From contig OY969695.1 of NCBI GenBank assembly GCA_963701965.1, forward strand, positions 3,968,001 to 4,032,000: a stretch of DNA of 64,000 nt, read 5' to 3'. The notes below the pieces were generated by a model. It saw only the letters and a list, made by a program, of their open reading frames with translations, did not search any database and was not told where the DNA came from. Source of the stretch: an uncultured Gemmatimonadales bacterium. GTDB lineage: Bacteria; Gemmatimonadota; Gemmatimonadetes; Gemmatimonadales; Gemmatimonadaceae. Made by a program: the position numbers and the translations under genes. Below, piece by piece: positions 17,116 to 36,292 of this stretch. The stretch's first letter is position 1; every line of letters starts with the position of its first letter.

Positions 17116-17121
17116 CGCACC

Positions 17122-18024
17122 GTGGTGCTGAGCACGCCCGTCGCGCATCTCCTCTGCCTCGGTCTCATCGCGGTCGACAACCTCACGCGCGCGTGGCGTA
17201 TCCAGGTGCTGGCGCGTGGTCTCCACACGCGGGTCCGATTTCTCGATGCGTTCACGCTCAACGCGGCCAGCGACGCTACCGCGGCGCTGACCCCGCTCCG
17301 CGCGGGCGGCGAGCCGGTACGATTCGCCGGCATGGTGAACGCCGGACTCAACGTGTCGGACACGATCGCGTTGATCAGCGTCGAGGGGATCATCGAGTGG
17401 TTGGTCGTGATCGTCGTGGGCGCATTCCTGGGATGGCGATTCGGCGGCGAATGGTGGCGCACCCAACAGCGCAGCGTAGGACCGCATTTGCGTCACGTTT
17501 TGTCCTGGATCCTGTTGATCATCGTGGGCGGCCTCGTCGCCTGGCTCCTCTTTCGGCGATTCCTGCCCCGCGTGTCCGTGCACGTCGGCGGCACGCTGCG
17601 GGACTCGTTGCGGTTGGCGCGCCGCATGCGCCCATGGGCCGTCGCCACGACGGTGCCGCTCACCGCGATCCATATCGTGGCCCGCATCCTCGTCCTGCCG
17701 GTCGTGGTGGGGACCCTCACCAGTCCACCGGCATTCGGCGCCGTCCTGATCGGCTCGTTCGCGCTCCTCTACGGCCAGAACTTCGTCCCGACGCCCTCGG
17801 GCGCCGGCGCGGTCGACTTGGGCTTCATCAATGGCGTGGCGGGCGACGTCGGACCCGAAGCCAGCTCCTTGTTGCTCATGTGGCGCTTTTATACGACGCT
17901 GCTCGGCATCATCTTGGGAATAGTCTTTGGCGTGCCACTCTACGCCGCCAAGGTACGCCGTTTTCTCCTACGGCGGCGCGATGCGCGCCGCACCGTTTTG
18001 CGTGACGACGACGCTCCAGGCTGA
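17122..18024 (+). CDS. Lysylphosphatidylglycerol-synthase TM / flippase-like membrane protein (UPF0104-like)
   Basis: RAWR, LTPLRAGGEP, PTPSGAG, WRFYT; multiple TM helices. Confidence 0.8.
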   Translation: MVLSTPVAHLLCLGLIAVDNLTRAWRIQVLARGLHTRVRFLDAFTLNAASDATAALTPLRAGGEPVRFAGMVNAGLNVSDTIALISVEGIIEWLVVIVVGAFLGWRFGGEWWRTQQRSVGPHLRHVLSWILLIIVGGLVAWLLFRRFLPRVSVHVGGTLRDSLRLARRMRPWAVATTVPLTAIHIVARILVLPVVVGTLTSPPAFGAVLIGSFALLYGQNFVPTPSGAGAVDLGFINGVAGDVGPEASSLLLMWRFYTTLLGIILGIVFGVPLYAAKVRRFLLRRRDARRTVLRDDDAPG

Positions 18025-19240
18025 CACCACCGCGACCGGCGCCGCGCCGGCGACCGCCCGGCCCCTGAGGCTGGCGCTCTTCACCGACACGTATCCGCCG
18101 CAGTTGAACGGCGTGTCGCGGACGCTGGAGCGTCTGGTGCGCGCCGTTGCCGACCGCGGCGGCGAAGCCCGCGTCTACACGACGACCGATCCCGAGGCCA
18201 CGCAGGTCGATCCGGCGATCTGGCGGCGGCCGAGTATTCCGTTCTGGGCCTACCCGCAGCTGCGGTTGGCGCCGCCGGTGGGCGGGCGCATCTACAATGA
18301 TCTCATGGCCTGGCGCCCCACGCTGCTCCACGCGGCGACGCCGTTCGGCATGGGTCTCACGGGACGGGCGTGCGCGCTGCGGTTGGGGATTCCGCTGGTG
18401 ACGTCGTACCACACGTCGTTCAGCGAATACGCGAAGTTCTATCGTCTCGGGCTCCTGAGCGGCCTGGGCTGGACGTTCTTCCGTTGGTTCCACAATACGG
18501 GGCAGCGGACGTACGTGCCGACGCGCGCCATCGCCGACGAGCTCCGGCCGTTCGGGTTCGAGCGCCTGGCCGTGTGGGGACGGGGCATCGAGACGGGCCG
18601 GTTCAATCCGCGGTTTCGGTCGACCGCCACGCGGGCGGAGCTCGGCGCGACGGACGACACGATCGTCGTGGCCTATGTCGGGCGCCTGGCCGCCGAAAAG
18701 GGCCTCGACGTCGCGCTCGACGCGATGCATCGCTTGCGGGGCGAGGACGTGATCTTCGCGCTGGCCGGCAATGGCCCCTACGCCGGGGCCTGCCGGCGCA
18801 AGGCACCGGCCGGCACGCGCTTCACCGGGCGCATCGTCGGCGAGGCGTTGAGCGCGTTCTACGCGTCGGCGGATCTCTTCATCTTTCCATCGACGACGGA
18901 CACGTTCGGCAACGTGTTGCTCGAAGCCATGGCCTCCGGTCTTCCCGTGATCGCCGCCGACGTCGGACCGACGCGCGAGCTCATGGCGCGGGGCGGGGGA
19001 GTGTTGATCCCGGGTGGCAATGGCGCCGCGCTGGCCTCGGCCATTCAGGCGCTCGCCGCGGACCCCGCGCGCCGGCGCCGGCTCGCCGCCGAAGGCATCG
19101 CCGCGGCCAGCCTATGCTCATGGGAGCACATCTTCGACGCGCTCGTCGCCGACTACCGGCGCGTGCTGGCCGAGCCCGTGATGCCGCCACCGCGGCGCGC
19201 GATCACGCGGACGACGACCCGTCCGCTGTCTCCACGCTGA
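18002..19240 (+). CDS. GT4 family glycosyltransferase (PimB/MgtA-like)
   Basis: FTDTYPPQLNGVSRTL, TSYHT, GRLAAEK, FPSTTDTFGNVLLEAMASGLPV; start uncertain. Confidence 0.9.
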   Translation: MTTTLQADTTATGAAPATARPLRLALFTDTYPPQLNGVSRTLERLVRAVADRGGEARVYTTTDPEATQVDPAIWRRPSIPFWAYPQLRLAPPVGGRIYNDLMAWRPTLLHAATPFGMGLTGRACALRLGIPLVTSYHTSFSEYAKFYRLGLLSGLGWTFFRWFHNTGQRTYVPTRAIADELRPFGFERLAVWGRGIETGRFNPRFRSTATRAELGATDDTIVVAYVGRLAAEKGLDVALDAMHRLRGEDVIFALAGNGPYAGACRRKAPAGTRFTGRIVGEALSAFYASADLFIFPSTTDTFGNVLLEAMASGLPVIAADVGPTRELMARGGGVLIPGGNGAALASAIQALAADPARRRRLAAEGIAAASLCSWEHIFDALVADYRRVLAEPVMPPPRRAITRTTTRPLSPR

Positions 19241-20408: not shown

Positions 20409-21277
20409 GACACGCGGGTCGCGCGCAGCACGCGAAGCGCGGCCACGCGCCGCCCGTCGATGGCAATGACCTCCAGTTCGCCATCGGGAAACGGCACGCG
20501 GTCCCCGATCTTCGGCAACCGACCGAGTTTGGCGAACGCATAGCCGCCGATCGTGGTCCATTCCCCGTCGGGGATGTCGAGATGGTGCTCCGAGCGCACG
20601 TCGATGAGCGACAGGAGTCCGGCCAGCTCCAGCACGCCCTCGAACTCGAATGAACGCCGCGTCGCCGGCTCGTCCTCATCGGCGATATCGCCGATGACCT
20701 GCTCGACGAGGTCTTCCATGGTGACGATGCCGGCGGTGCCGCCGTACTCGTCGAGCACGATGGCCATGTGGGCACGGCGCCGGCGCAAGTCGGTGAGCAC
20801 CCGCTCGGCGGGCACGGAGGCCGGCACATAGATCGCCTCGCGCAGCATGTCGCCGAGCACGAAAGGCGCCCCATCGTCCAGGGCCCAGAGATCTTTGGCC
20901 AGAAAGATCCCGACGACGTCGTCGAGCGACTCCCGGTAGACCGGATATCGGGAATACCGCTCGGTGCGGAGCACCGTCCGCACATCTTCGGCTGTCGCCT
21001 CGACCGGGACCGCGACGATCTCGGTCCGTGGCCGCATGACGTCGTGCGCCCGTTTGTGCTGAAAGTCGAGCACACCGCCGAGCATGCGCGAGTTGCCGGT
21101 CCGGGCCACGACGCGCCGCACTTCATCCGGCGACATGCCGCGCACCCACATGGCGGCCATGCGGCGACTGAGGCGCTGAGCCATATCCCGTGCCGCCGTC
21201 GCAATGGTGGCGACGACGGACCACACGACGTCGAGGAACGCGGCCCACGCCCGTCCCCGCCGAGCGGTTTCATTCAC
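20405..21277 (-). CDS. CBS-pair + CorC/HlyC domain protein (no DUF21 region)
   Basis: [50 protein letters not shown]. Confidence 0.85.
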
Positions 21278-21307
21278 GCGGAAACCCTGTGCCGACAAGC
21301 TCGTCTC

Positions 21308-23038
21308 ATGATACAGCCCCTCACCCCACCGCGCACCCCGCCTGTCGTGACGTCGATCAGCCCTCCCCGGGCCAAGTTGCAGCTGGCCATGACCGACCCC
21401 GGCCGCATCATGCGCGGAATCTACATCGGTCGATTCATTGTCTCGGCGGCGATCTTCCTGGCTGCGCAGTTTGCCTGGGAACGGACACCGACAGAGACGG
21501 CGCGGCTGGCGTCGCTGATCTTCGCCGTCGCGATCCTGTTCACGGTCGCGTCGGCCGCCTATAGCGAAGTCGTCCACAAGGGCCCCTCCGCGCGCGCCTT
21601 TTTGTATATCCAGACGGCGTTCGACATCGCTTTCGTGACGGCGGTCGTGCACGTCACGGGCGGCAGCCAGTCGCCGTTCGCCTGGCTCTACATCCTCGTG
21701 ATCGCCGGCGCCGCGCTCCTCCTCCCCGTCGGAGCAGGGCTACTGATCGCGCTATCATGCAGCATCTGTTATTTCGTCGAGGTGCTCTGGCTGAGCCACA
21801 CGACTCCCGACGTCGCGGTGTGGCTGCAGCTCGTGGTGTTTGGCACCGTCGCCCTCGGCAGCGGCTACATTGGCTCACGCCTGCAACAGGCCGGCGCGGG
21901 CACCGCGGCCGAGTTGGTGTTCGTCCGCCTACAAGGGGAGGATATCCTGGGCGCGATCCGCAGCGGCATCATCACGATCGACAGCCGCGGCAACTTGCTC
22001 TACGCCAATCCCGCGGCCATCGAGCTGCTGGGTCTTCCGGTGCGGCGCTCGACCGCCGTGCCAATCCTGCCGCTGATCGCAGCGGCCGCGCCGCGTCTCG
22101 CGCGCGCGCTGGAAGACGCGGTGACCCGCCGATTCCGGACGACCCGCGGAGAAGACATCGTCACGCTGCGGGATCGCACATTCCCCATCGGCGTCACCAC
22201 GACCTACAGCCAGCAGTCGGATTCAGCGACGGCGACGGCGATCTTCCAGGACATCTCGGGGCAAAAGCGCCTGGAGAGCCTGCACGTCCGCGCTGGGCGG
22301 CTGGAGGCGGTGGCCGAGCTGGGCGCGTCGCTGGCGCACGAGATCAAGAATCCGCTCGCCTCGATCCGCAGCGCCGTGGAACAACTGGCGCGGATGCCGC
22401 AGGCGGACGACGACGCGCGAACGCTGGGCGCGCTCATCGTGCGCGAATCCGATCGCCTGTCACGACTCTTGACGGAATTTCTGGATTTCGCGCGCGTCCG
22501 GGTAACGTGTCTCCGTCCGGTCGACTTGGGGGCGGTGGCCACGGGCGCCGCCAGTTTGGTCTCGGCGCACCCGGACCGGGAGCCCGGCGTCACCATTTCC
22601 TGTTCCATTCCGGACGTCCCGCTCGTCATCGACGGGGACGAGGATCTGCTGCACCGCGCCGTGTTCAATCTGGTGCTGAACGCGGTGCAGGCGGCGCCGC
22701 CCAACGGCACGGTTCGAGTCGATGTGGCGCCAATCGCGGCCGATCAACTCCCCAGTGGCGTGTCATTCGACTCGGGCGCGGTCGCCTTGCGGGTGAGCGA
22801 CGACGGACCCGGGATCGCGTCCGAGGTCCGGGATCGCATGTTCGAGCCGTTCATGACGACAAAATCGGGTGGCAGTGGACTGGGATTGTCCGTGGTGCAC
22901 CGGGCGATCGAGGCGCACCGTGGGGTGGTCCTCGTCGACACCGGAGCGCTGGGCACGCGTCTTACCGTCCTGCTCCCCTACGCCCAGATCACCGACGACG
23001 TTCCGGTGCAATTTCGGGTGCCGCAGGAGACCGCGTGA
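21308..23038 (+). CDS. pilS: PilS-like membrane sensor histidine kinase
   Basis: ~6 TM with D...VH.TGG..SPF..LY, PAS-like region, LAHEIKNPL, NLVLNA, GSGLGL; upstream of PilR-like gene and pilA; start may be 21389. Confidence 0.8.
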   Translation: MIQPLTPPRTPPVVTSISPPRAKLQLAMTDPGRIMRGIYIGRFIVSAAIFLAAQFAWERTPTETARLASLIFAVAILFTVASAAYSEVVHKGPSARAFLYIQTAFDIAFVTAVVHVTGGSQSPFAWLYILVIAGAALLLPVGAGLLIALSCSICYFVEVLWLSHTTPDVAVWLQLVVFGTVALGSGYIGSRLQQAGAGTAAELVFVRLQGEDILGAIRSGIITIDSRGNLLYANPAAIELLGLPVRRSTAVPILPLIAAAAPRLARALEDAVTRRFRTTRGEDIVTLRDRTFPIGVTTTYSQQSDSATATAIFQDISGQKRLESLHVRAGRLEAVAELGASLAHEIKNPLASIRSAVEQLARMPQADDDARTLGALIVRESDRLSRLLTEFLDFARVRVTCLRPVDLGAVATGAASLVSAHPDREPGVTISCSIPDVPLVIDGDEDLLHRAVFNLVLNAVQAAPPNGTVRVDVAPIAADQLPSGVSFDSGAVALRVSDDGPGIASEVRDRMFEPFMTTKSGGSGLGLSVVHRAIEAHRGVVLVDTGALGTRLTVLLPYAQITDDVPVQFRVPQETA

Positions 23039-24405
23039 GCGACGGGAAGCCCACCGTCCTGGTCATTGATGACGAGTCAGGGATTCTCGACTCGTTGCGC
23101 ATCCTGCTCAAGAACGAAGGCTTCACGCCGCTCACCGCGCTGGGTGGGAAGCTGGCATTGGAGCAATTGGACAGGATCAACCCGGACATCGTCTTGAGCG
23201 ATGTCCGGATGCCGGCGGTCGGCGGCGTGCAGATCTTGAGCGCCGTGCGGGCAAAGTATCCCGAGACGCCCGTCATTCTCATGACCGCGCAGGCGACCCT
23301 GCAGTCGGCGATGCAGGCCGTCAACGAGGGCGCGTTCTACTATATTCAGAAGCCATTTGGGAACGACGAGCTCGTGGCGATCCTCAAGCGGGCGGCCGAG
23401 CATCGGCGCCTACGCGTGGAGAACTCGTCGCTCAAGCGGGAGATCAAGCGCCGCGAACGCCAGACCGACGGCCGGCCCGTAGGGTCCAGCAAGGTGTGGC
23501 TCGATGTCGTTACGCTGGCTGAAACCGTCGCCGCGACCGAGTCGACCGTCCTGATTCAGGGCGAGTCGGGCACCGGCAAGGAAGTCATCGCCCGCTACAT
23601 CCACCAACTCTCGAACCGCGCCGACGCCCAGTTCGCGTCGATCAACTGCGGCGCGCTCCCCGAGAGCTTGTTGGAGAGCGAGCTGTTCGGCCACGTCAAG
23701 GGCTCGTTCACCGGCGCCGTCAAGGACAAGAGCGGGTTGTTCACCGCCGCCGCGGGAGGGACGTTTTTCCTCGACGAGGTCGGCGAGACCACGCCCGCCA
23801 CGCAGGTCAAGCTCCTCCGTGTGTTGCAGCACCGCGAGGTGATTCCGGTCGGTGCGACCGATCCCAGTCCGATCGACGTGCGTCTGCTCGCCGCCACGAA
23901 CCGCGATCTCGAGGAGGAGATCAAGCGGGGCACATTCCGGAGCGACCTGTTCTACCGGCTGAACGTGATCGCACTGCATTTGCCGCCGCTGCGCGACCGG
24001 CGGGACGACATCCCTCTCCTCGTCGAGGCGTTTCTGCACCGCGCGGCCGAGGCGCGGTCGGAAAGCCCGAAGCGTGCCAGCGAAGCGGCGCTCGAGGCCA
24101 TGCGCAGCTTCTCCTGGCCCGGGAACGTCCGCGAGCTGGAGAACGCCCTGGAGCGCGCCGTCATTCTGACGCCGGGCGACGTCATCGATGTGTCCGCGCT
24201 GCCCGACCGTGTCACCGACCGGCAAGCCGAGCCGCTTATCTCCGAACGCACCGCGACGACGCCGACGCTCGACGTAATCGAGCGGGCCTATATCATGTGG
24301 GTTCTGCAGAGTGAGGGCGGCAACAAGACACGAGCCGCCGACGTGCTCGGCATCGACCCCTCGACTCTCTACCGCAAACTCTCCCGCTTCGGCGTCGAAG
24401 CATGA
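23035..24405 (+). CDS. pilR: PilR-like sigma54-dependent response regulator
   Basis: Receiver (IDDE, D.RMP, KPF), [31 protein letters not shown], Fis HTH. Confidence 0.85.
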
Positions 24406-26048
24406 CGCGCCGTTGGCTCCCGGCGGCGTCGATCGCGGCGCTCGCCTCCGTTGCCGCGAGCACGGGTCTCGGGAATGGATTCGCCTACGATGATCTGCCG
24501 ATCATCGCGCGGAACGCGCCCCTGCACGACTGGCACCAGCTGGCGCATCGTTTCGTCGAGTCTTACTGGCCGCTCGCGCAGGGAGGGACACTCTACCGGC
24601 CGCTGGCGACGGCGCTGTTCACCATCGAATGGACGGCCGGCGGCGGCTCGGCTCTGCCATTTCACGTGGTGAACCTCCTGCTCTACGTTGCCGTCTGCCT
24701 GGGGGTCCTTGCGCTCGCGAGAAGCATGCTGCCCGCCGGCATCGCGCTGGGCACGGCGGCCGCGTTCGCGGTGCATCCCGTGCACGTCGAGGTCTTCGCC
24801 AACTGCGTCGGACAGTCTGAGCTCATCGTGGCGGGCGCCGTGTGCGCGGCGGGGGCGCTCTACCTGCGCCGGCGCGCCGCCGGCCAGCTCCGCAGGCGCG
24901 ACCTCGCAACGCTCGCAATCCTCTTCATCGTGGGGTTGCTGGCCAAAGAGCACGCGATCGTGTTGCCCGCGCTGCTGCTGGCGGCCGAGCTCACCGTGGT
25001 CGCCGATCCCGCGCCCGCGCGCGCGCGGGCGCGATCGCTCGTGCCGCTGGGCGTTCTGCTCGCCGGGATCGCGAGTGCCTACCTGATCCTGCGGCGGTCG
25101 GTGCTCGGCGGCCTGGTCGGCGAGAACCCGGCGTTCGCATTCCGCGACGCGATGTGGACTACGCGGTCGTGGACGATGCTGGGCGTCGTGCCCCAGTGGG
25201 TCCGGCTGCTGGTATGGCCCGCGCACCTGTCGGCCGTCTATTCGCCGCCGGGGACCGCCGTCCGCGACAGCGCCGACATTGTCGCGATGGTGGGGCTGGT
25301 CGTTCTGACCGGGGGAGCCGTGCTGGCGGTCGCGGCGCGGCGCCAGCTCCCCGTGCTGTCCTTTGGCCTCGCCTGGTTCGGGATTGCCATCTTGCCCGTG
25401 AGCAACGTCGTGGTGCGCACGGGCGTTCTCCTCGCGGAACGAACACTCTTTCTGCCGAGCGTCGGCGCGATGCTGGCCGCCGGCGCGCTGGTGCCGGTCG
25501 TCGTCAACTGGCTGCCGCGCGCTGGCGTTGCGCGGCGCGCCGAGTTGGCCGGGGCGGCGACCGGCCTGACCATGCTACTTGTCGCGGGACTCGCCCGCAG
25601 CATGGTGCGCGCCCCGGTCTGGCACGACGACTCGACGCTGTTCCGTGCCGCGACTCAGGAGGAGCCGTTGAGCTATGCCGCCCACTACGGCTACGCGGGG
25701 CTGTTGTTCAACGCGGGCCAGCGCGGATCGGGCGAGCGCGAGGCGCGTCGCGCGCTTAGCCTCTACGGCGGCGACCCACGCGTCTTCATCGACTTGGCCA
25801 CCGAGTATGCGCGCGCGGGCGCCTGCGCGCCGGCGGAGCGGCTGGCCCGCCGTGCGCTGGACATCACCTCACACCTGGTGTCGGCCCGTGTCATCCTCGC
25901 CCAATGCCGCCTCGAAGCGCGCGACTACGCGGGATTGCGTTCCGTGGCGGCCGACGGTTTGTCCGACGGCGTGCGCCCCGCCCTCTTCCGCAAGATGCTC
26001 TGGACGGCCGATAGCGGGGCGCATGCAAGCGCTCTGGCCGGCCCTTAA
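24402..26048 (+). CDS. TMTC-like GT-C membrane glycosyltransferase with C-terminal TPRs (copy 1)
   Basis: F.YDD..II..N, YRPL, FH..N..L, FAVHPVHVE.FAN.VG.SEL, LLAKE, AERTLFLPS, W.DD.TLF, TPR-like tail. Confidence 0.82.
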   Translation: MTRRWLPAASIAALASVAASTGLGNGFAYDDLPIIARNAPLHDWHQLAHRFVESYWPLAQGGTLYRPLATALFTIEWTAGGGSALPFHVVNLLLYVAVCLGVLALARSMLPAGIALGTAAAFAVHPVHVEVFANCVGQSELIVAGAVCAAGALYLRRRAAGQLRRRDLATLAILFIVGLLAKEHAIVLPALLLAAELTVVADPAPARARARSLVPLGVLLAGIASAYLILRRSVLGGLVGENPAFAFRDAMWTTRSWTMLGVVPQWVRLLVWPAHLSAVYSPPGTAVRDSADIVAMVGLVVLTGGAVLAVAARRQLPVLSFGLAWFGIAILPVSNVVVRTGVLLAERTLFLPSVGAMLAAGALVPVVVNWLPRAGVARRAELAGAATGLTMLLVAGLARSMVRAPVWHDDSTLFRAATQEEPLSYAAHYGYAGLLFNAGQRGSGEREARRALSLYGGDPRVFIDLATEYARAGACAPAERLARRALDITSHLVSARVILAQCRLEARDYAGLRSVAADGLSDGVRPALFRKMLWTADSGAHASALAGP

Positions 26049-26057
26049 TGTTCCCCC

Positions 26058-26831
26058 ATGACCGAAATCACGCGCCCGGCCGAGCACCTGACCGGACCCA
26101 CGATTCCCCGCATGCGCGGCCGGACGCCGATTCCGCGACACGCCCTGCGGCTGTCCGTGCTCATCCCGGTCTACAACGAGCGGGCGACGATCGGCGCCAT
26201 CCTCGACCAGGTCCACGCGGTCAACGTCCCGAAGGAAATCATCTGCGTCAACGATTGCTCGACGGACGGGACCCGGGAGATACTCGATCGCCTGGCGGCC
26301 GAGGGACGCATCGATCGACTGATTCACCATCCGCGCAACCAGGGAAAGGGAGCGGCCATTCGGACCGCCCTGGCGGCCAGCACGGGCAACGTGGTGATCG
26401 TGCAAGACGCCGATCTCGAATACGACCCGGCCGATTGGCCGCAGATGATGGAACCGCTCATCGACGGCGTGGCCGACGCAGTGTTCGGCTCGCGATTTCT
26501 CGGCGGACCGCATCGCGTGCTCTATTTCTGGCACTCGGTCGGGAATGCCGTCCTGACGACGTTCAGCAACATCGCGACCAATATCAACCTCACCGACATG
26601 GAGACGTGCTACAAGGCGATCCGGGGCGAGGTCGCCCGATCGCTGGTGCTCACGTCGGACCGATTCGGATTCGAGGTCGAGGTGACCGCCCGGCTCGCGC
26701 AAGCGCAGGCGCGCATCTACGAGGTACCCATCAGCTACTCGGGCAGGACGTACGCCGAAGGGAAGAAGATCGGGTGGAAGGATGGGGTGGCGGCACTGTG
26801 GCACATCGTGCGCTACAACCTGCGTTCCTGA
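26058..26831 (+). CDS. GT2 glycosyltransferase, Dol-P-Man synthase (DPM1)-like
   Basis: IPVYNE, VNDCSTDGT, NQGKG.A, QDADLEYDP, GSRF, DMETCYK, FGFE.E, EGKKI.WKDG. Confidence 0.9.
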   Translation: MTEITRPAEHLTGPTIPRMRGRTPIPRHALRLSVLIPVYNERATIGAILDQVHAVNVPKEIICVNDCSTDGTREILDRLAAEGRIDRLIHHPRNQGKGAAIRTALAASTGNVVIVQDADLEYDPADWPQMMEPLIDGVADAVFGSRFLGGPHRVLYFWHSVGNAVLTTFSNIATNINLTDMETCYKAIRGEVARSLVLTSDRFGFEVEVTARLAQAQARIYEVPISYSGRTYAEGKKIGWKDGVAALWHIVRYNLRS

Positions 26832-28483
26832 CGCGCCGCGTCGCGGCGCGCGCGCCCGTCGTCATCGCGCTGATCGCCGCTCTCGTCTACGCCAATGGTC
26901 TGTCGAACGGCTTCACCCAGGACGACTGGCCGCTGATTGCCCACAATCCGATCGTTCAGTCCTTCACCGGCCTGTGGCGTGCGTTCGCGCACCCGTACTG
27001 GCCCAAGGCGTGGGGCTGGGGACAATACCGGCCGGTTGCCGTTGGCTTGTTCGTGTTGCAATGGGCGGCCGCCGGCGGGTCGCCCTCGGTGTACCACGGC
27101 GTGAGCATCGTCCTGCACGTCAGCGTATGCCTGTTGCTCCGCCGAGTGCTGATGACCATGGTGCCACCCCCCGGCGCGACGATTGGCGCGGCATGGTTCG
27201 CCCTCCAGCCCGTACACGTCGAAGCCGTCGCCAGCGCCGTAGGCCAGAGCGAGCTGCTGTCGACCGCGTTCGTCCTGGCGGCCTGGCTGGCGCATTGGCG
27301 CGAAAAGCGGATCGCCATGGTCTGGTTCGCCCTGGCGCTGCTGGCCAAAGAGACGGGGATCGTCTTCTTGGGTCTCGCCATCGTGCACGACCTGATGCAG
27401 GGAGGCGCGCGCGCCCCGCTGGCCCGCCGCCGCGCCCTGTACCTCCGCTACGGAGCGGTCGTGGTCCTCTACGCGGTGGTCCTGGCGACGATCTTCTCCG
27501 ACCAACCCCTGCGGGTGGTTGCCCAGACCTGGGACGGCGCCACGGCCGGCGCGCGTCTGCTCACGATGCTGAGTGTGGCGCCAGACTACGCGCGCCTGGT
27601 GGTGATGCCGTTCGTGCTCCGCACCAACTACGAGCCCCAGGTTATCGCGCTGCAGACCGCGTTGACGCCGCCCGTCTTCTTGGGCGGCGCCTTCGTGATC
27701 GCGGTGATCATCGCGGTGATCATGACCAGGCGGCGCGCCCCGGCGATATGCTACGGCATCGCCTGGTTCGTGATGGCGGTCGCTCCCGTGGCCAACGTGT
27801 TCTTCGCCACGGGCGTCGTCCTGGCGGAACGCACCTTGTATCTGCCGACCGCTGGTGCGGCCATCGTCATCGGCGGGCTCGCGGCGCGCGCCAGGCCGCG
27901 GCTTCGGGTGGCGGCGCTGGCCACCGCCTTCGGCCTGGCGTTCGCCGTACGCGTATGGACCCGGACGCGCGTCTGGCATGATGACCTCGCGCTGACGAGA
28001 AGCGCGCTGCATGACTCGCCGCGGTCGTACAAAGCGCACCACGCGGCCGCGATGTTTCTCGCTTCGACCGGACAGTGGACCGCCGCGGCCGGTGAATACC
28101 GGCTGGCTCGGCAACTGTTCCCCCGCGATGGCGACCCATACCGCGGAGGGGCGGAGGCCGCGCTGGCGGCGCGCGACTATGAGGGAGCGGCCGCGCTGCT
28201 CGACAGCGCGCGCCGTCTGGCCCCCACGCAGATCGGTCCCTGGCTCCGGCTCGCGGACGTGCGTGCCCTGCAACGCCGCTGGCGGGAAGCCGGGGCGCTC
28301 GCCTTCGCGGCGTATGAGCTGTGCCCCGATTCCGTGCGCGCGATTCGGGTCGCGGCGACGATGGCCGTCCGCTCGGGGAACCCCGTTGCGGCGCGCACGG
28401 CGCTGCGGCGCGGACTTGCCGACCACCCCGGCAACGCGGACTTGCATCGCGCGTATATCGCGGTGCGCGACACCGGGCCGTAA
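26828..28483 (+). CDS. TMTC-like GT-C membrane glycosyltransferase with TPRs (copy 2)
   Basis: GFTQDD, YRPV, PVHVEAVA..VG.SEL, LLAKE, AERTLYLP, WHDD. Start uncertain: GTG 26798 or CTG 26828. The longer ORF-track start overlaps the GT2 gene. Confidence 0.82.
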   Translation: MTRRVAARAPVVIALIAALVYANGLSNGFTQDDWPLIAHNPIVQSFTGLWRAFAHPYWPKAWGWGQYRPVAVGLFVLQWAAAGGSPSVYHGVSIVLHVSVCLLLRRVLMTMVPPPGATIGAAWFALQPVHVEAVASAVGQSELLSTAFVLAAWLAHWREKRIAMVWFALALLAKETGIVFLGLAIVHDLMQGGARAPLARRRALYLRYGAVVVLYAVVLATIFSDQPLRVVAQTWDGATAGARLLTMLSVAPDYARLVVMPFVLRTNYEPQVIALQTALTPPVFLGGAFVIAVIIAVIMTRRRAPAICYGIAWFVMAVAPVANVFFATGVVLAERTLYLPTAGAAIVIGGLAARARPRLRVAALATAFGLAFAVRVWTRTRVWHDDLALTRSALHDSPRSYKAHHAAAMFLASTGQWTAAAGEYRLARQLFPRDGDPYRGGAEAALAARDYEGAAALLDSARRLAPTQIGPWLRLADVRALQRRWREAGALAFAAYELCPDSVRAIRVAATMAVRSGNPVAARTALRRGLADHPGNADLHRAYIAVRDTGP

Positions 28484-28515
28484 CCTGGCGAATCCATAGG
28501 GCGTCCTTTGGGGAC

Positions 28516-30291
28516 ATGCCCCCAGCCCCCACGCACCAGATCGACGGACCGGACCAGCGCTGGCGGCAGTGGGCGATCGCCAGCATTGTGCTCGTCGCTG
28601 CCCTGTGCTACGCCAACGCGCTCGCCAACGGCTACGTGCAGGACGATCAGGGCATCATTCACGACAACCCGCTCGTCCAGACCGTCACGGGACTCTGGCG
28701 GGCGTTTGCCCATCCCTACTGGCCGGAGCACAACGGCGCCGGCCAATACCGGCCCCTGGTGATCGACTCGTTCGTCATCGATCGCGGCATCCTCCATCTG
28801 GGCGCTTGGTGGATCCACCTGGTCAATATCGGCTGGCATGTCGCCGTCTCGGTCTTGGTGTGGCGCGTGCTCTCGACGATGCTGTCGGTGTCCGGCGCGT
28901 GGTTCGGGGGCCTCTGGTTCGCGCTGCATCCGGTGCACGTGGAGGCGGTCTCCAACGGCGTCGGCCGGTGCGAGTTGATGGCTACCGCATTCGTTCTGCT
29001 CGCATGGCTCGCGCATTGGGAGAAGCGTCCGGTCGCCGTCCTGTACTTCGCGGCAGCCCTCGCGTCGAAAGAGGTGGGCATCGTCTTTCTCGGTCTCGCG
29101 GCGGCCCACGATCTCATCGTCGGCAGTTCGGCGCATTGGCGCCGTCCTTTCGTCGAGCGGCGTCGATGGTACGCCGCCTATGCCGGCGTGTGCGCGGTAT
29201 ACGCCGGCGCGTTGCTCTGGGTCTTCCGCAGCAAACCGTTCGTGGTGACGGCGGTGACGTGGGATCACGCCACGATGCTCCAGCGATGGTTGACCATGCT
29301 GCGGGTGGTCCCCGAATACGCCCGGCTCTTGCTCGCTCCCATCGATCTCAAGGTCGACTACACGCCGCGGACCATCGACCTCGTCACCGGCGTGACCCCA
29401 GCAGTGGTCGTCGGGTGCGCATTGTTAGCGGCAACGCTGCTCGTCCTCGTCGCGCTGTGGCGTCGGGCGCCCGCGGTGTCCTACGGCGTCGTCTGGTTCA
29501 TCGTCGCGATCTCGCCCGTCTCGAATGTACTCTTTCCGTCGGGCGTGGTGCTGGCCGAGCGGACGCTCTACTTGCCGAGCGTCGGCGCGGCGATCATTGC
29601 GGGCTGGATCTTCGAGCGGGCGCTGGTCGTGCGGCCCCGTTTCAGCGCCGTCTTCGCGACGGTGCTGTGTGTCGCGTTCGCCTTGCGGACCTGGACGCGG
29701 ACTCCTTTCTGGCACGACAAGCGCCAATTCCTGATGCGGGAAGTGTCCGAGCAGCCGGAATCCTATCGCGCGCACTACACCGTGTGCGTGCTGCTGTCAC
29801 TCGAGCATCATTGGTCGGAGGCCGCCACCGAGTGCCAGGTGGCCCGCCGCCTGCACGGGAGCGACGTCGGCCCCTACGTCACCGGTGCCCAGGTGGCGCT
29901 CGGCGCCCGGCAGACGCTCGTCGCCGACGCCTTGCTCGACAGTGCCAAGCAACTCAGTCCGGGGGATTACGCGACCCTGTACACGCTGGCCGAGCTGCGT
30001 CGGACGCAAGGGCGGCCGCGTGAAGCGATCGCGCTCGCGTTCAGCGCCTACGAATCCGCACCCGACAGCGTGCAGGCCATCGATCAGCTGACGAGCGCCG
30101 CGCAAGCGCTGCACGACTATGTGGACGCCGAGGCCGCGTTCCGTCGCGGTCTGGCCGACCATCCGGCGAACGTGCATCTGCGCGAAGGGTACGCGGCCAT
30201 GTTGATGGATCGCGGGGATAGCGCGGCGGGGCGGCAACAACTGGCGTTAGCCCATTCTGACGTGGTCCAGACGCTCTTCTCATCCCAATGA
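28516..30291 (+). CDS. TMTC-like GT-C membrane glycosyltransferase with TPRs (copy 3)
   Basis: GYVQDD, YRPL, HPVHVEAV...VGR.EL, SKE, AERTLYLPS, TPR-like tail. Confidence 0.82.
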   Translation: MPPAPTHQIDGPDQRWRQWAIASIVLVAALCYANALANGYVQDDQGIIHDNPLVQTVTGLWRAFAHPYWPEHNGAGQYRPLVIDSFVIDRGILHLGAWWIHLVNIGWHVAVSVLVWRVLSTMLSVSGAWFGGLWFALHPVHVEAVSNGVGRCELMATAFVLLAWLAHWEKRPVAVLYFAAALASKEVGIVFLGLAAAHDLIVGSSAHWRRPFVERRRWYAAYAGVCAVYAGALLWVFRSKPFVVTAVTWDHATMLQRWLTMLRVVPEYARLLLAPIDLKVDYTPRTIDLVTGVTPAVVVGCALLAATLLVLVALWRRAPAVSYGVVWFIVAISPVSNVLFPSGVVLAERTLYLPSVGAAIIAGWIFERALVVRPRFSAVFATVLCVAFALRTWTRTPFWHDKRQFLMREVSEQPESYRAHYTVCVLLSLEHHWSEAATECQVARRLHGSDVGPYVTGAQVALGARQTLVADALLDSAKQLSPGDYATLYTLAELRRTQGRPREAIALAFSAYESAPDSVQAIDQLTSAAQALHDYVDAEAAFRRGLADHPANVHLREGYAAMLMDRGDSAAGRQQLALAHSDVVQTLFSSQ

Positions 30292-30427
30292 CTCGTATCG
30301 GGACACCCATCGCGCCACGCAGTCTGCAAGTCGTCGTGCAAAACACACGGCACATCGGCGGCGAGCAGGTCGGGCGACTGATGCCCAACCCATTGGAGTA
30401 TTGATAGTTAGACGGCACAGTCCGCCA

Positions 30428-30443
30428 CGGCCCGTCCGTTGCC
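30428..30443 (+). promoter_or_regulatory. Sigma54 (-24/-12) promoter of pilA
   Basis: CGGCCC-GTCCG-TTGCC with GG-N10-GC spacing, ~75 nt upstream of pilA; PilR-like activator upstream. Confidence 0.7.
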
Positions 30444-30518
30444 TATGTAGTGGCCAGATGGCAGTTGCCCGGTGACCCGCAGTCACCACTTTTCTCCCCC
30501 CTCCGGAGTAGACACGTT

Positions 30519-30935
30519 ATGAAGACGGCCAAGAAAGGTTTCACCCTCATCGAGCTTCTGATCGTCGTCGTGATCATTGGTATCCTTGCCGCGATCGCGA
30601 TTCCGAAGTTCGCCGCCACCAAGTCGAAGGCGTATACCGCTTCGATGAAGACCGATCTCCGCAACCTGGTGACGGCGCAGGAAGCGTACTTCTCGGACAA
30701 CACGTCGTACGCGACGACCCTGGCCGCGCTCTCGACGTCGTTCCACCCGTCAGCCGGTAACGTGGTTGCGGATCCGAGTGCAGCGACCACGACCGGCTGG
30801 AGCACGACGGTGACGAACACGTTCGTCCCGTCCACGTCGACCGGTCATCTCTGCGCCGTGTGGGTTGGTGGCGCGGCGTCGGCCCCAGGTGGTGTCACGG
30901 CTGACACGATCGAAGGCGCGCCGGCCTGTTTGTAG
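30519..30935 (+). CDS. pilA: Type IVa major pilin
   Basis: MKTAKKG|FTLIELLIVVVIIGILAAIAIP; C-terminal Cys pair; own promoter and terminator; RBS GGAG. Confidence 0.9.
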   Translation: MKTAKKGFTLIELLIVVVIIGILAAIAIPKFAATKSKAYTASMKTDLRNLVTAQEAYFSDNTSYATTLAALSTSFHPSAGNVVADPSAATTTGWSTTVTNTFVPSTSTGHLCAVWVGGAASAPGGVTADTIEGAPACL

Positions 30936-31107: not shown

Positions 31108-32151
31108 ATGGCGCTCTTTGGCCGCAAGAAAACCACGATCGGACTCGATATCGGATCCGGCCTCGTCAAAGTCGCGGTCATCGAGCACGGGCGCCAGCCC
31201 GAGCTGACGAAGGTCGCCATCGTGCCGCTGTCCGCCGACGCGATCGTCAATGGCGAGGTGATGGATCCGACGATCGTCGCCGATGCGATCCGGCAGACGC
31301 TGGAGCTCGCCGGGATCAAGAAAGCCAAACACGTCGTCACGGCCGTCGGTGGCCGCGACGTGATCATCAAGAAGATTCAGATCGAACGCGTCAAGGAATC
31401 GCAAGCGCGCGAGCTGATGCGCTGGGAAGCCGAGCAGCACGTGCCCTTCGACATGGAGTCGGTGGAGCTGGATTTCCAGATCCTCGATCCGGACGCCGAG
31501 GGCCTGGAGATGACGGTGTTGCTGGTGGCGGCCAAGCGCGAGCTCGTGGAAGCGCGGCTGCGCGTGCTGACCGATGCCGGTCTCTCGCCCATGACCGTCG
31601 ATGTCGAAGCGTTCGCGCTCCACAACGCGTTCGAGGTGAACCACCCCGACGCCATGACCGGTATCGTGGCCCTGGTCAACCTGGGACACGAAGTCACCAA
31701 CATCAATATCCTCGACGATGGCGTGCCGATTCTCACCCGCGATGTCGCGGTGGGCACCCGGCGCCTGCGCGAGGATCTGCAGCGGGAGCGCGGCCTGTCG
31801 CAGGAAGAGGCCGAAGCGCTGCTGCAAGGGTTCGATCGGTCGCCGCATCTCGACGCGGTGATCGAGTCGCGCGGTGAGGAGATCGCCGTCGGGATCGAGC
31901 GCGCCGCCGCGTTCCTGGCGTCGGCCTCGCGGTCCGCCGGACAGCTCCGCGCCGTGTTCACGTGCGGCGGCGGGGCCCGGATCCCGGGGCTCACTGAAGC
32001 GCTGGCGGCGCGGCTCCGCCTCTCCGTCGAGCAGGCGAACCCGTTGGCCAACTTGAAGGTACGTGACGGCGTCTTTGATTCGCTCGTCACAGACGAAGTC
32101 GCGCCGTTGTTGATGTTGCCGATCGGCTTGGCCCTCCGCCACGCCGCGTGA
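31108..32151 (+). CDS. pilM: Type IV pilus assembly protein PilM
   Basis: IGLDIGS, EAEQHVPF, LDFQIL, VLLVAAK, GGGA, NP, IGLALR. Confidence 0.95.
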   Translation: MALFGRKKTTIGLDIGSGLVKVAVIEHGRQPELTKVAIVPLSADAIVNGEVMDPTIVADAIRQTLELAGIKKAKHVVTAVGGRDVIIKKIQIERVKESQARELMRWEAEQHVPFDMESVELDFQILDPDAEGLEMTVLLVAAKRELVEARLRVLTDAGLSPMTVDVEAFALHNAFEVNHPDAMTGIVALVNLGHEVTNINILDDGVPILTRDVAVGTRRLREDLQRERGLSQEEAEALLQGFDRSPHLDAVIESRGEEIAVGIERAAAFLASASRSAGQLRAVFTCGGGARIPGLTEALAARLRLSVEQANPLANLKVRDGVFDSLVTDEVAPLLMLPIGLALRHAA

Positions 32152-32172
32152 CGTCCCCCCGAGAGCGATTCC

Positions 32173-32895
32173 ATGATTGAAATCAACCTGCTGCCTGGTG
32201 CTGGAAAGAAAGCGCGCGGCAAAGCCGCGCGCGCTGACGTCGGCTCGAAGGTCGCCGGCGCCGTCTCCCACATCAAGCAGCCGTATCTCATCGCCTGCGT
32301 GGCCTGCCTCGTCGTCGCCGGCGCCGTCGTCTACCTGATGAACGTGCGCCAACAGGCGGTGGCCAACGAGCTCGCCGCGACGGAACAGAAGCAGGTGCAG
32401 GACTCGACCCGGTACGCGGCCGTCCTGCGCGAGAAGCGCAAGGCCGAGACGCAGCGGGACTCGGTCATGCACCAGCTCAACATCATCAAGGCGATCGACA
32501 ACAATCGCTTCGTCTGGCCCCACGTGATGGATGAGGTCAGCCGGGCGATGCCGCAGTACACGTGGCTGACGGCCCTGGAGCAAACCAGCGCCGTGGCCGT
32601 CGTCGGCGCGATCGACACGACGAAGAAGACGAAGAAAGCCAAGGCCGAGATGGACGACGAGCCGCCGCCGGCGCTCAAGTTCCGGTTGACCGGCAACACC
32701 GTCGACATTCAGGCCCTGACGCGGTTCATGAAGCTCCTCGAGGCCTCGCCCTTCATTCAGAACGTGCAGCTCGAGAAGTCGGACCTGGCGACGGTCGATG
32801 GCAAGGACGTGACCCAATTCTCGCTCACGGCCGAGTATCAGACGCCCGATTCGACGGCGATTCGGACGGTCCCGCTCACTCTGTCGGTGAGGTAA
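32173..32895 (+). CDS. pilN: Type IV pilus assembly protein PilN
   Basis: MIEINLLP, single TM, coiled coil, W..L...P...WLT.L. Confidence 0.92.
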   Translation: MIEINLLPGAGKKARGKAARADVGSKVAGAVSHIKQPYLIACVACLVVAGAVVYLMNVRQQAVANELAATEQKQVQDSTRYAAVLREKRKAETQRDSVMHQLNIIKAIDNNRFVWPHVMDEVSRAMPQYTWLTALEQTSAVAVVGAIDTTKKTKKAKAEMDDEPPPALKFRLTGNTVDIQALTRFMKLLEASPFIQNVQLEKSDLATVDGKDVTQFSLTAEYQTPDSTAIRTVPLTLSVR

Positions 32896-32898
32896 CCC

Positions 32899-33543
32899 AT
32901 GGCCTTTCCGCCAAAGAACTCACGCGACCTGGCCTACACCGCCGGCTGCGTGGCCGCATTCGCCGGGATCTTCTTCTATTGGTCGTCGGTCTTCACGCCC
33001 AAGGAAGCGGAGCAGGCGGCCGTGCGCTCCCACATTGGCCAGCTCGAGCAGTCGAACCAGCGCGCCAAGGCCGAGTTGGCCAAAGGCAGCGTGAACGATC
33101 TGCGCGCCCAGGCGCTGCGCTATCAGCAGAACCTGCAGCTCATGCGGCAGCTGGTCCCGACCAGCAACGAAGTGCCGGCGCTCCTGGAGCAGGTCTCCAC
33201 GGCCGCCCGGCGCGTGAACCTCGAGCTCGCCGGCGTCGATCCGGAGCCGGTGATCACGGGCGACCAGTTCGACACCTATCGCTATCAGATCAGCGTGATC
33301 GGCGATTACCACGCGTTGGCCGCGTTCCTGACCAACGTCGGTTCGCTGACCCGTATCGTGGCCCCGGTCAATCTCAAGCTGGCGCCGGTCTCCGGTAATG
33401 ATGCGCGTGGACACCCCATGACGCACAGCCGGTCGGCCCTGAGCTCCAAGTTCGAGATCCAGACGTACGTGGCCCGGTCCAGCGGCGCCAATGCCGACCA
33501 GTCCCCTCACGCCCGGTTGCCGAAACCCGGAGCGAAGTCATGA
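32899..33543 (+). CDS. pilO: Type IV pilus assembly protein PilO
   Basis: TM, coiled coil, LVP..NEVPALL, G.YH.L..FL..V..L.RIV. Confidence 0.92.
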   Translation: MAFPPKNSRDLAYTAGCVAAFAGIFFYWSSVFTPKEAEQAAVRSHIGQLEQSNQRAKAELAKGSVNDLRAQALRYQQNLQLMRQLVPTSNEVPALLEQVSTAARRVNLELAGVDPEPVITGDQFDTYRYQISVIGDYHALAAFLTNVGSLTRIVAPVNLKLAPVSGNDARGHPMTHSRSALSSKFEIQTYVARSSGANADQSPHARLPKPGAKS

Positions 33544-34334
33544 TGCGTTCCTTGAGCGCGCTCGCGCTCGCGGCTCTCCTGATCCCCCGCGCGCCCGTGA
33601 GCGCGCAGGGCATGATCAACGGCCCGAAGACCGCCGCCAAGAACGCGGCGGCCGCGACCAACGCGCATACGACCGCGGAACAGAGCCCGACGGCGACAGC
33701 GACGACGACTCCGGCGACGACCACTCCGGTGGCGACGACGACCGCCAAGACGACGCCCGCGGCTCCGGCCATGGCGCCGCTCCCACCGCGCTTCACGCGT
33801 ACGACGACTTCGATCGCGGCGACGGCGAAGCCGACGACCGCGGTGCCGGCGGCCAAAGTGACCCCGGCTCCGGCCAGCGCGACGGCGATCAAGATCACGC
33901 CCAAGACCACCGCCAAGCTGACGGCGGCCTCGGCGGCGCCGGCGACGACGTCGGACACCGGTTCCCGGTCGATCTCGGTGACGCAGCGCGGCATGAAGGG
34001 GGAAGTCTCGCTGGAACGGGAAGTGTTCAGCTACGACGCGGGAGGCCGGCGCGACCCGTTCGTGTCGCTGCTCCGCAATGGCGACCTGCGGCCGATGCTG
34101 AACGACCTGCGCCTGGTGACGGTGATCTACGATCCCACCGGACGCAATTCGATCGCGATCATGCGCGACGTCTCCACCAAGGACCAGTATCGGGTGCGAG
34201 TCGGGACGACCTTGGGCCGGATGCGGGTGGCCCAGATCGAGCCGCGCGAGATCGTGTTCACGATCGAAGAGATCGGGTTCAGCCGCCAGGAACTGCTGGC
34301 GCTCGGTGATTCATCAACAGCGAGGACGCAATGA
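33540..34334 (+). CDS. PilP-position protein with Thr/Ala/Pro-rich N-terminal linker
   Basis: Between pilO and pilQ; Y...GRRDPF motif of PilP-like proteins; SPI-type signal, no lipobox. Confidence 0.7.
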   Translation: MMRSLSALALAALLIPRAPVSAQGMINGPKTAAKNAAAATNAHTTAEQSPTATATTTPATTTPVATTTAKTTPAAPAMAPLPPRFTRTTTSIAATAKPTTAVPAAKVTPAPASATAIKITPKTTAKLTAASAAPATTSDTGSRSISVTQRGMKGEVSLEREVFSYDAGGRRDPFVSLLRNGDLRPMLNDLRLVTVIYDPTGRNSIAIMRDVSTKDQYRVRVGTTLGRMRVAQIEPREIVFTIEEIGFSRQELLALGDSSTARTQ

Positions 34335-36292
34335 AGCAAGTCTGGACGCTGATCGCCGCCGGCACCGTCGCGCTTGCGAGCGCGCGCGGCGCGGGTGCGG
34401 CGACCGCCGACCCGGGGGATACCCCGCCGGCGCCCCGCGGAGCAGCCGTCACGGGGGTCAGCGTACTCCCGTCGGACGGTCGAGCGGATGTGGTGGTCGA
34501 CGTCGACGGAGCGGTCGACGTGCAGGATTTCGTTCTCGAGATGCAGCCCTATCGTGTGGTTCTCGATCTCACCGGCGCCCGGTTGAGCATCGGCTCCCAC
34601 TTCTATGATCGGATCGCGCGCGGCGCCGTCACCAACGTGCGCTACGCGCAGTACAAAGCCGGCGTCGTCCGCGTGGTGGTCGAACTGGACGGCCCGCGCA
34701 AGTACACGATGACCCGCGATGACCACGCGGTGCACCTCAAGTTCGAGGGTGGCGAGCCCAAGTTCGCCGCCTGGAACTCGGGCGTGTCGCTGGTGCCCGT
34801 CGTCGCGGTGGCGGCGGTGAAAGAGTCGCCGCGGGCCGCGGATGTCGCGGTGCCCACGCCGATGGCCTCGGATATCGTGGCCACGAACGCCGGCGTGCTG
34901 GTGACGCCGATCGTCAAGCGCTCCGATGTCCCGATGGCCGGACACAGTGTGCTGCAGCATGGAACCCAGTCCCAGCAGCCGCGCATGACGGTGACGTATC
35001 AGGACGCCGATATTCGCGATGTCCTGGCGGCGTTCGCCGCCTTCTCCGGCCGCACGGTCGTGGTGGGCCGCGAAGTCGAAGGCAAAGTGACCGCCGAAGT
35101 CCGGGATCAACCGTGGGACGTCGCGCTCCAGGCGGTGCTGAGCGCCCAGCAGCTCGCGGCCTCGGAAGACCAGTATGGCATCATTACGGTGGATTCCTAC
35201 AAGAACATTCAGTCCAAGCAAGCCAGCGAACCGTTGATCACCCAGCTGGTGTCGATCAATTACGCCAGCGCGCCGTCCTTGGTCAAAACCGTCGAGTCGC
35301 TGTTGGCGCGCGACTGCGGCGGTGCGGCCGCCGGCGGGGCGTCCGGCGCGGGCTGCCTGGCGCGCGGCAACGTGGTCGCCGACTCGGGCACGAACTCGCT
35401 CCTGATCACGGAATCGCAGTCGCACATGAACGACGTGGTCAACTATGTGCGCGACCTCGACATCCGGACGCCGCAGGTGTCGATCAAGGCCAAGATCGTG
35501 TTCATCAATCGGACGGTCACCCAGAACCTCGGGCTGGCCTACGACTTCGAGGAGCCGACCCAGTACTTCAACAAGCTCGTCGACCACGTCAATCCGACGC
35601 AGGCCCCGAGCTTGTTCGATCCGAACACGTACGTCGTGAACGTGGGTGGCGACGCGCTGGCCGGGATCTCGAACGCCAGCCGGCCGTTCGCCAGCTCGGC
35701 GGCGCTCAACCTGATCTACTCGATGAGCCTCGGGAAGTTCTCGCTGACGTCCTTCCTCGACGCGCTCTCGCTGAACAACATGTCCGACGTCCAGGCCGAG
35801 CCCAGTGTCGTGACGCTCGACAACCGCCCGGCCAAGATCCAGGTCGGACAAGAAACCCCGATCCGCGTGATCGACGCCAGCTCCAACGGCGTCGGCGGAA
35901 CGGCGCGCGCCACGGTGAGCTTCAAGGAAACCGGTATCATCCTGCAGGTGACACCGCATATCACGAACAATGGCCAGGTGCTGATGCAGCTCCACGCGGA
36001 GCAGTCGACGCTCTCGCAGACGGGCGGTGACCTGGGCTTCTTCTTCTTCAAGCGGTACGCCGACAATCAGCTGTTGGTCAACGACGGCGAGACGGCGGTG
36101 ATCGGCGGGCTCACCCAGACGACGGTCACGAAACAAAAGCAGGGTATTCCGATCCTCTCCGATCTCCCGATCATCGGCGGTCTCTTCTCCCAGACGTCGA
36201 ACGAAGAGGACAAGCAGGACTTGCTGATTCTCGTCACACCGCACATTCTGCCCGATAACGAGCCCGTTCGCTCGGCGAACGCGAACCGGTAA
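34331..36292 (+). CDS. pilQ: Type IV pilus secretin PilQ
   Basis: AMIN-like domain, DADIRDVL, PWD.AL, INYA.A, LD..TPQV.I.AKIV, L.VTPHI, GETAVIGGL, GIP.L.DLP.IG.LF. Confidence 0.93.
   Translation: MKQVWTLIAAGTVALASARGAGAATADPGDTPPAPRGAAVTGVSVLPSDGRADVVVDVDGAVDVQDFVLEMQPYRVVLDLTGARLSIGSHFYDRIARGAVTNVRYAQYKAGVVRVVVELDGPRKYTMTRDDHAVHLKFEGGEPKFAAWNSGVSLVPVVAVAAVKESPRAADVAVPTPMASDIVATNAGVLVTPIVKRSDVPMAGHSVLQHGTQSQQPRMTVTYQDADIRDVLAAFAAFSGRTVVVGREVEGKVTAEVRDQPWDVALQAVLSAQQLAASEDQYGIITVDSYKNIQSKQASEPLITQLVSINYASAPSLVKTVESLLARDCGGAAAGGASGAGCLARGNVVADSGTNSLLITESQSHMNDVVNYVRDLDIRTPQVSIKAKIVFINRTVTQNLGLAYDFEEPTQYFNKLVDHVNPTQAPSLFDPNTYVVNVGGDALAGISNASRPFASSAALNLIYSMSLGKFSLTSFLDALSLNNMSDVQAEPSVVTLDNRPAKIQVGQETPIRVIDASSNGVGGTARATVSFKETGIILQVTPHITNNGQVLMQLHAEQSTLSQTGGDLGFFFFKRYADNQLLVNDGETAVIGGLTQTTVTKQKQGIPILSDLPIIGGLFSQTSNEEDKQDLLILVTPHILPDNEPVRSANANR

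Follow-up and report, generated by a model that had tools for sequence, protein, structure and literature searches.

A candidate pilin O-glycosylation cassette of TMTC-like membrane proteins between pilSR and pilA in Gemmatimonadota

Organization of the locus and its products

The considered region (the window) comprises 64,000 nucleotides of contig OY969695.1 from an uncultured Gemmatimonadales bacterium (assembly GCA_963701965.1, positions 3,968,001 to 4,032,000). The genome is a single 95%-complete contig of 5.1 Mb, which is the scope of all genome-wide searches below; its closest named homologues belong to Gemmatimonadaceae. The window contains a type IV pilus locus with the gene order pilS, pilR, T1, GT2, T2, T3, a sigma54 site, pilA, pilMNOPQ, aroC, aroK (Table 1). 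Here T1, T2 and T3 encode TMTC-like proteins of the glycosyltransferase C (GT-C) type with tetratricopeptide repeats (TPR), GT2 encodes a member of glycosyltransferase family 2, and the interval between pilR and pilA is called the slot. An earlier note on the window, made from the sequence alone, had placed these genes in the same order before a sigma54-driven pilA, and the coordinates, overlaps and promoter site bear this out.

The cassette is tightly coupled to pilSR. The start of T1 overlaps the 3' end of pilR by 4 nt, and T1 and GT2 are separated by 9 nt. There is no ATG codon near the start of T2; the candidate start codons are GTG at 26798 and CTG at 26828, each overlapping the end of GT2. 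The gap between T2 and T3 is 32 nt. The cassette is probably co-transcribed with pilSR. The 227 nt between T3 and pilA contain the sigma54-type site. Of 57 related loci, 33 have this consensus pattern upstream of pilA, versus 0.54 in shuffled sequence. The scan for sigma70 promoters and terminators gave a result no better than chance.

Table 1. Candidate genes and sites of the pilus locus (window positions)
Feature	Position	Strand	Basis
PilS-like sensor kinase	20768..23038	+	Pfam 6TM_PilS, HisKA, HATPase_c
PilR-like sigma54 response regulator	23035..24405	+	Pfam Response_reg, Sigma54_activat, HTH_8
T1, TMTC-like GT-C/TPR protein, 548 aa, deep paralog	24402..26048	+	weak PMT_2 match, E 7.6e-4
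GT2, soluble, polyprenol-phosphate monosaccharide synthase type (predicted donor synthase)	26058..26831	+	Pfam PF00535, E 6.6e-34
T2, TMTC-like GT-C/TPR protein, ~551 aa, non-ATG start	26828..28483	+	motifs, TPR
T3, TMTC-like GT-C/TPR protein, 591 aa	28516..30291	+	DUF1736, 21.7 bits (cut-off 27); model pLDDT 89.4
Predicted sigma54 -24/-12 promoter of pilA	30428..30442	+	consensus pattern
pilA, type IVa major pilin, putative acceptor	30519..30935	+	N_methyl motif; NF041775 below cut-off
pilMNOPQ	31108..36292	+	Pfam PilM_2, PilN, PilO, Secretin
PilP-position protein with Thr/Ala/Pro-rich linker, second candidate acceptor	33540..34334	+	sequence

T1, T2 and T3 are the only TMTC-like genes matched when all open reading frames (ORFs) of the genome were searched with a membrane-domain profile. 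T2 and T3 are 48% identical, and T1 shares 32-34% with either; a quick tree that covers 124 of the 217 domains places T2 with T3 in one starred clade and T1 in another. All three contain DD in the first loop and the motifs YRP, P-x-H-x-E, KE and ER. These catalytic-type residues are conserved: all 151 pil-linked proteins of Gemmatimonadota have R-P, P-x-H-x-E, K-E and the R of E-R, and at least 149 of them keep DD. The longer forms of the motifs that the earlier note had ascribed to all three proteins, together with TPR tails, hold in part. T2 has QPVHVE where HPVHVE was expected, T1 has AERTLFLP where AERTLYLP was expected, and the TPR match of T1 is under the Pfam cut-off (E 0.001).

The AlphaFold model of T3, built from an alignment of 38 sequences, combines a membrane domain with TPR (pTM 0.87; for the predicted local distance difference test score, pLDDT, see Table 1). 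Its DSSP string, read by eye, has 11 membrane-length helices and one loop helix before residue 400, followed by TPR hairpins; simple hydropathy gives only 7-8 segments. Matches to PMT_2 and TMTC_DUF1736 were found in 14 and 8 of 49 aligned relatives, respectively (E<=0.01), other bacterial relatives match DUF1736 down to E 2.7e-10, and in an Atlas feature search a eukaryotic DUF1736 cluster scored 0.92. The sequence data support the assignment of T1-T3 to TMTC-like GT-C/TPR proteins.

GT2 has the fold of its family and the DxD motif, and contains no transmembrane (TM) segment. It shares weak full-length similarity with AglJ, PpgS, dolichol-phosphate-mannose (DPM) synthase, GtrB and ArnC. However, all matches to named NCBIfam families are below cut-off (AglJ 120 bits, PpgS 67, archaeal Dol-P-hexose transferase 67). 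GT2 also differs from these enzymes in lacking a membrane anchor, and no GtrA-family flippase was found in the 95%-complete genome. The best match in the Protein Data Bank (PDB) is 5MLZ, the DPM synthase of P. furiosus (E 1.6e-15), and yet AglJ and PpgS are at least as close to GT2. Thus the resemblance is to polyprenol-phosphate sugar synthases in general, which supports the synthase type named in the earlier note. Since GT2 is below cut-off for every named family, the sugar cannot be read from the sequence, as the earlier note also held; probably it is a hexose or an N-acetylhexosamine (HexNAc). Mannose, which the label DPM1-like in that note implied, is possible but not supported, and rather unlikely, because the similarity of GT2 is not specific to DPM synthase and because the H-K-S residues are absent from T1-T3. 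The motif SHKS, which precedes YRP, makes the mannose contact in the published model (PMC7801869). A search of the slot for the D-arabinofuranose (D-Araf) donor pathway, DPPR synthase and DprE1/E2, yielded only GT2.

Linkage to pilA within and outside Gemmatimonadota

To avoid selecting on the trait, the loci were sampled by PilR. Among 80 other Gemmatimonadota genomes searched, 55 had a match (E<=1e-150), and 49 loci were examined. The excluded genomes were G156, G055 and G059, in which pilR is close to the end of a contig, G187, because of the region limit, and also G047 and G038. The loci of G047 and G038, known from an earlier set, lack pilR, yet two TMTC-like genes adjoin pilA there. For L037, where no pilin was detected, and L202, where the contig ends, the class was assigned from the genes downstream of pilR.

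The slot contains one to three TMTC-like genes at 31 of the 49 loci. These are accompanied by an orthologue of GT2 in 24 cases, by a distant GT2 in four and by none in three. At 15 loci the slot contains neither a GT-C gene nor GT2. All 26 slots with a GT2 orthologue also contain a GT-C-type gene, whereas no orthologue was found in the 15 slots without one. Of the 25 genomes without a TMTC-like gene in the slot, 24 have no match anywhere and one has a partial match; 13 of them were newly tested, all with no match, and 12 had previously been negative or weak. The cassette appears or disappears at least ten times on a PilR tree with 75 rows, and thus it is an accessory module rather than a part of the core assembly machinery. 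The linkage to pilA is conserved far beyond chance, yet has been repeatedly gained or lost. This distribution suggests that most piliated Gemmatimonadales in the sample use a variable cassette to glycosylate their pili.

The slots of relatives often encode, in addition, a methyltransferase and two further GT-C-like families, one of about 500 aa (30 sequences) and one of about 660 aa (nine sequences); none of these are present in the window slot. These additions suggest longer or modified glycans in the relatives. The family of about 500 aa (L037, L039, L048, L174, L178, L182 and others) consists of membrane proteins without a Pfam match. Its similarity to the TMTC domain is weak (hhalign 66%), and it accompanies GT2 even where TMTC-like genes are absent; its role may be that of an alternative initiating enzyme or of an elongating one.

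The second phylum sampled is that of the Trichloromonas genome G062, which we take to belong to Desulfobacterota. TMTC-like genes were found in 33 of its 61 genomes. Among the matches listed, such a gene lies within 6 kb of a pilin match in 11 of 32 genomes, versus 1.46 expected by a rough model, and related genomes are not independent; the count covers the 32 genomes with listed coordinates, and 11 matches were unlisted. The co-occurrence with pilA across genomes that the earlier note proposed to examine is therefore observed in both phyla. The pilA-linked proteins of Desulfobacterota fall into several separate clades. Three of the pilin-linked loci contain a DPPR-synthase-like gene, above cut-off in L150 and below it in L146 and L158, and L154 has a TfpX/TfpZ-like gene, also below cut-off, along with a GT2 that is 57% identical to that of the window. 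DPPR synthase and TfpX/TfpZ are components of the system of TfpW, the pilin glycosyltransferase considered in the next section. At four loci (L146, L147, L148, L150), short Geobacter-type pilins of 58-65 aa are encoded close to a TMTC-like gene, and two of these loci also have the DPPR-synthase-like gene; pentose glycosylation of such pili is possible. Four genomes of this sample (G122, G120, G101, G123) have 15-30 TMTC-like genes each, often in tandem arrays.

In Acidobacteriota, where the tally is 22 of 41 genomes, locus L096 repeats the order pilS-pilR-TMTC-GT2-TMTC-pilins. This tally includes the unpublished genome G211, which is not among the 15 further genomes considered below. Divergent TMTC-like proteins are also encoded in two viral contigs of IMG/VR (L186, L187), the latter with RecT and LPD38 genes.

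Candidate function and alternative explanations

TfpW is the pilin D-arabinofuranosyltransferase of the Pseudomonas aeruginosa group IV strains Pa5196 and PA7 (bioRxiv 2020.04.19.049825). As described in the preprint (10.1101/2020.04.19.049825), it is a GT-C enzyme of 646 aa with 11 predicted TM helices and C-terminal TPR, an essential DDX in periplasmic loop 1 and the motif Y-x6-P-F-x7-P in loop 4. The tfpW gene adjoins pilA, and several serines and threonines of the pilin are modified. By this published description, T1-T3 have the same layout, with 11 TM helices, DD in loop 1, a TPR tail and a position near pilA. However, tfpW is a single gene downstream of pilA, whereas three paralogs are located upstream of it here, and the D-Araf donor of TfpW is made via DPPR synthase, DprE1 and DprE2, whereas here a GT2 donor synthase is predicted. 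Among T1-T3, the exact spacing of the loop 4 motif is found in T2 only; among the 151 relatives, it is exact in one and looser in 116. The exact motif of T2 was considered as proof of TfpW membership and rejected, as it occurs in 1 of 151 relatives.

Since the preprint describes the same architecture beside pilA, T1-T3 most likely belong to a system of that kind, and the contrast with TfpW drawn in the earlier note was probably wrong. By analogy, it is well supported that T1-T3 work like TfpW, and likely that they are homologous to it. GT-C-dependent glycosylation of pilins is already known from TfpW, and for this reason the surprise is limited; what would be new in this TfpW-type system is the GT2 donor module, along with the paralog expansion. 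We found no literature tying TMTC to pilins or to TfpW, and none combining Gemmatimonadota, pilin, glycosylation and type IV pili, with most subscription journals and the preprint supplements outside coverage. The pilA cluster of cable bacteria contains genes for sugar-modifying enzymes and TPR proteins; the text of PMC10580974 does not identify the latter as TMTC- or TfpW-like.

Thus it is probable that the conserved but variable cassette O-glycosylates PilA from a lipid-linked monosaccharide, in the manner of TfpW. GT2 would load one sugar onto polyprenol phosphate, and the donor would be flipped across the membrane. In the periplasm, the three TMTC-like enzymes would then attach the sugar to serines and threonines of PilA while it is still anchored in the membrane and not yet assembled. 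The paralogs may differ in the sites or the pilus proteins on which they act. The likely purpose would be masking of the pilus from phages or a change of surface properties; pilin glycans of P. aeruginosa are known to block phages (10.1101/150227; PMC11841053).

PilA is the putative acceptor. Mature PilA is 131 aa long and contains 32 serines and threonines, exactly as counted in the earlier note. The likeliest site would be the alpha-beta loop, at about Thr55-Thr60. In TMTC slots, position 55 of the mature pilin is Ser or Thr in 45% of cases and position 58 in 43%, versus 0% and 5% at loci without GT-C genes. This region is probably in the alpha-beta loop, and its numbering is near the sites Thr64 and Thr66 reported for the TfpW substrate; however, the comparison was made post hoc, and the enrichment is only a hint at the acceptor site. 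The Ser/Thr richness on which the earlier note relied was rejected as weak evidence, as pilins of loci without GT-C genes still average 16.7% (n=19), compared to 20.4% in TMTC slots (n=51; naive p 0.0004). This comparison left out truncated pilins, pilins shorter than 105 or longer than 150 aa and one pilin with an apparent frameshift. The genome encodes a second major-pilin-like gene far from the cassette (G000:C1:2841355-2841774; 54% identity to PilA), which is another possible acceptor.

A number of observations weigh against glycosylation of PilA by this cassette. The difference in Ser/Thr content is not significant over seven independent pairs. T3 matches DUF1736 at 21.7-25.3 bits, below the cut-off of 27, and T1 and T2 have no match. 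Foldseek with the full T3 model listed only TPR-type proteins, and sequence and profile searches of the PDB with the membrane domain matched no GT-C structure. Three of the 49 Gemmatimonadota slots contain other GT-C-like genes and no TMTC-like gene. The aspartate of loop 4 is replaced by valine in T1 and by asparagine in T2. In the 15 further Acidobacteriota genomes with both genes, one is linked (0.26 expected), and no pilin was seen near the TMTC-like genes at the loci of Bacteroidota, Ignavibacteria and Planctomycetota. Finally, the family is very large, with 38,564 representatives at E<=1e-30 for a profile that includes the TPR tail.

The loss of the loop 4 aspartate is what could be expected if T1-T3, or T1 and T2, were non-catalytic pilin chaperones or assembly factors similar to TfpX/Y/Z, and inactive GT-C members such as PIG-U do exist (PMC7801869, section 8). 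However, DD, RP, HxE, KE and ER are near-invariant, and GT2 strictly co-occurs with GT-C-type genes. This makes a non-catalytic role very improbable.

As TMTC-like genes are mostly unlinked to pilins in Acidobacteriota and other phyla, the family must have other substrates in most lineages, and it is not pilin-specific. Hence one possibility is that the pil locus encodes a general system of periplasmic O-glycosylation, directed at the PilP linker, PilQ, minor pilins or adhesins, with PilA a minor target or none. The Thr-rich linker of the PilP-position protein would fit, as would the 13-30 copies in some Desulfobacterota genomes and the neighbourhoods away from pil loci, which have no common theme and share no neighbour. 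On the other hand, every copy in this genome is in the slot, loss from the slot accompanies genome-wide loss, and in unrelated clades of Desulfobacterota the gene adjoins pilA itself. We therefore consider general glycosylation unlikely.

The combination of GT2 with a GT-C enzyme is also the standard design of systems decorating polysaccharides (PMC11127046). A three-component system similar to Gtr or ArnT, co-regulated with pili and acting on lipopolysaccharide, exopolysaccharide or another lipid or polysaccharide, would explain the additional GT-C-like families and methyltransferases of relatives and the mixture of polysaccharide genes with pilA at Geobacter-type loci. However, the window slot contains no genes for polysaccharide export or polymerization, and the characterized enzymes that combine a membrane domain with TPR, TMTC and TfpW, act on proteins. 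Decoration of a lipid or polysaccharide is thus quite improbable, though somewhat less so than the absence of catalysis.

Glycosylation of PilA remains the preferred explanation, and it raises the question of the relation to the eukaryotic proteins TMTC1-4 (CAZy GT105, DUF1736). The latter share with T1-T3 the 11 TM helices and TPR as well as DD, YRP, P-x-H-x-E, KE and ER-x-x-Y (PMC7801869). On the other hand, SHKS is absent here, and the DW motif, metal-binding in the published model, is replaced by D-Y in T3, N-Y in T2 and V-Y in T1. The Dol-P-Man donor and the cadherin acceptor of TMTC1-4 may not apply to T1-T3. It may tentatively be suggested, at less than even odds, that TfpW, the pilA-linked enzymes of Gemmatimonadota and Desulfobacterota and animal TMTC1-4 form one family of protein O-glycosyltransferases, represented here by bacterial TMTC-type O-mannosylation or O-hexosylation with paralogs divided between sites. 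If so, bacteria have repeatedly brought this family together with pilA and with a donor module that can be exchanged, GT2 for hexose or HexNAc here and a DPPR-type pentose module in Geobacter-like loci, and the pili of Geobacter-like bacteria would be glycosylated. It would also provide a simple bacterial model, as a kit of GT2, enzyme and pilin would give direct access to TMTC-type catalysis in vitro. For the very large uncharacterized family of bacterial TMTC-like proteins, the linkage to pilA offers a concrete substrate hypothesis.

Neighbouring genes

The start of pilS is probably near 21.4 kb, within the longer ORF given in Table 1. Upstream of the locus, at 16399-19240, genes encoding DUF2334, LPG-synthase-TM and GT4 proteins form a separate small cluster of lipid or glycan modification. 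Six loci of relatives (L089, L103, L105, L124, L166, L176) share an ORF of about 1,020 aa in the slot; both members scanned encode a fused protein similar to the major facilitator superfamily and spermidine synthase. In the window, aroC (36377-37571) consists of two overlapping ORFs, owing to a frameshift near 37,035. In the relatives L036, L048 and L131 it is a single ORF of more than 400 codons, and the frameshift is probably an assembly error.

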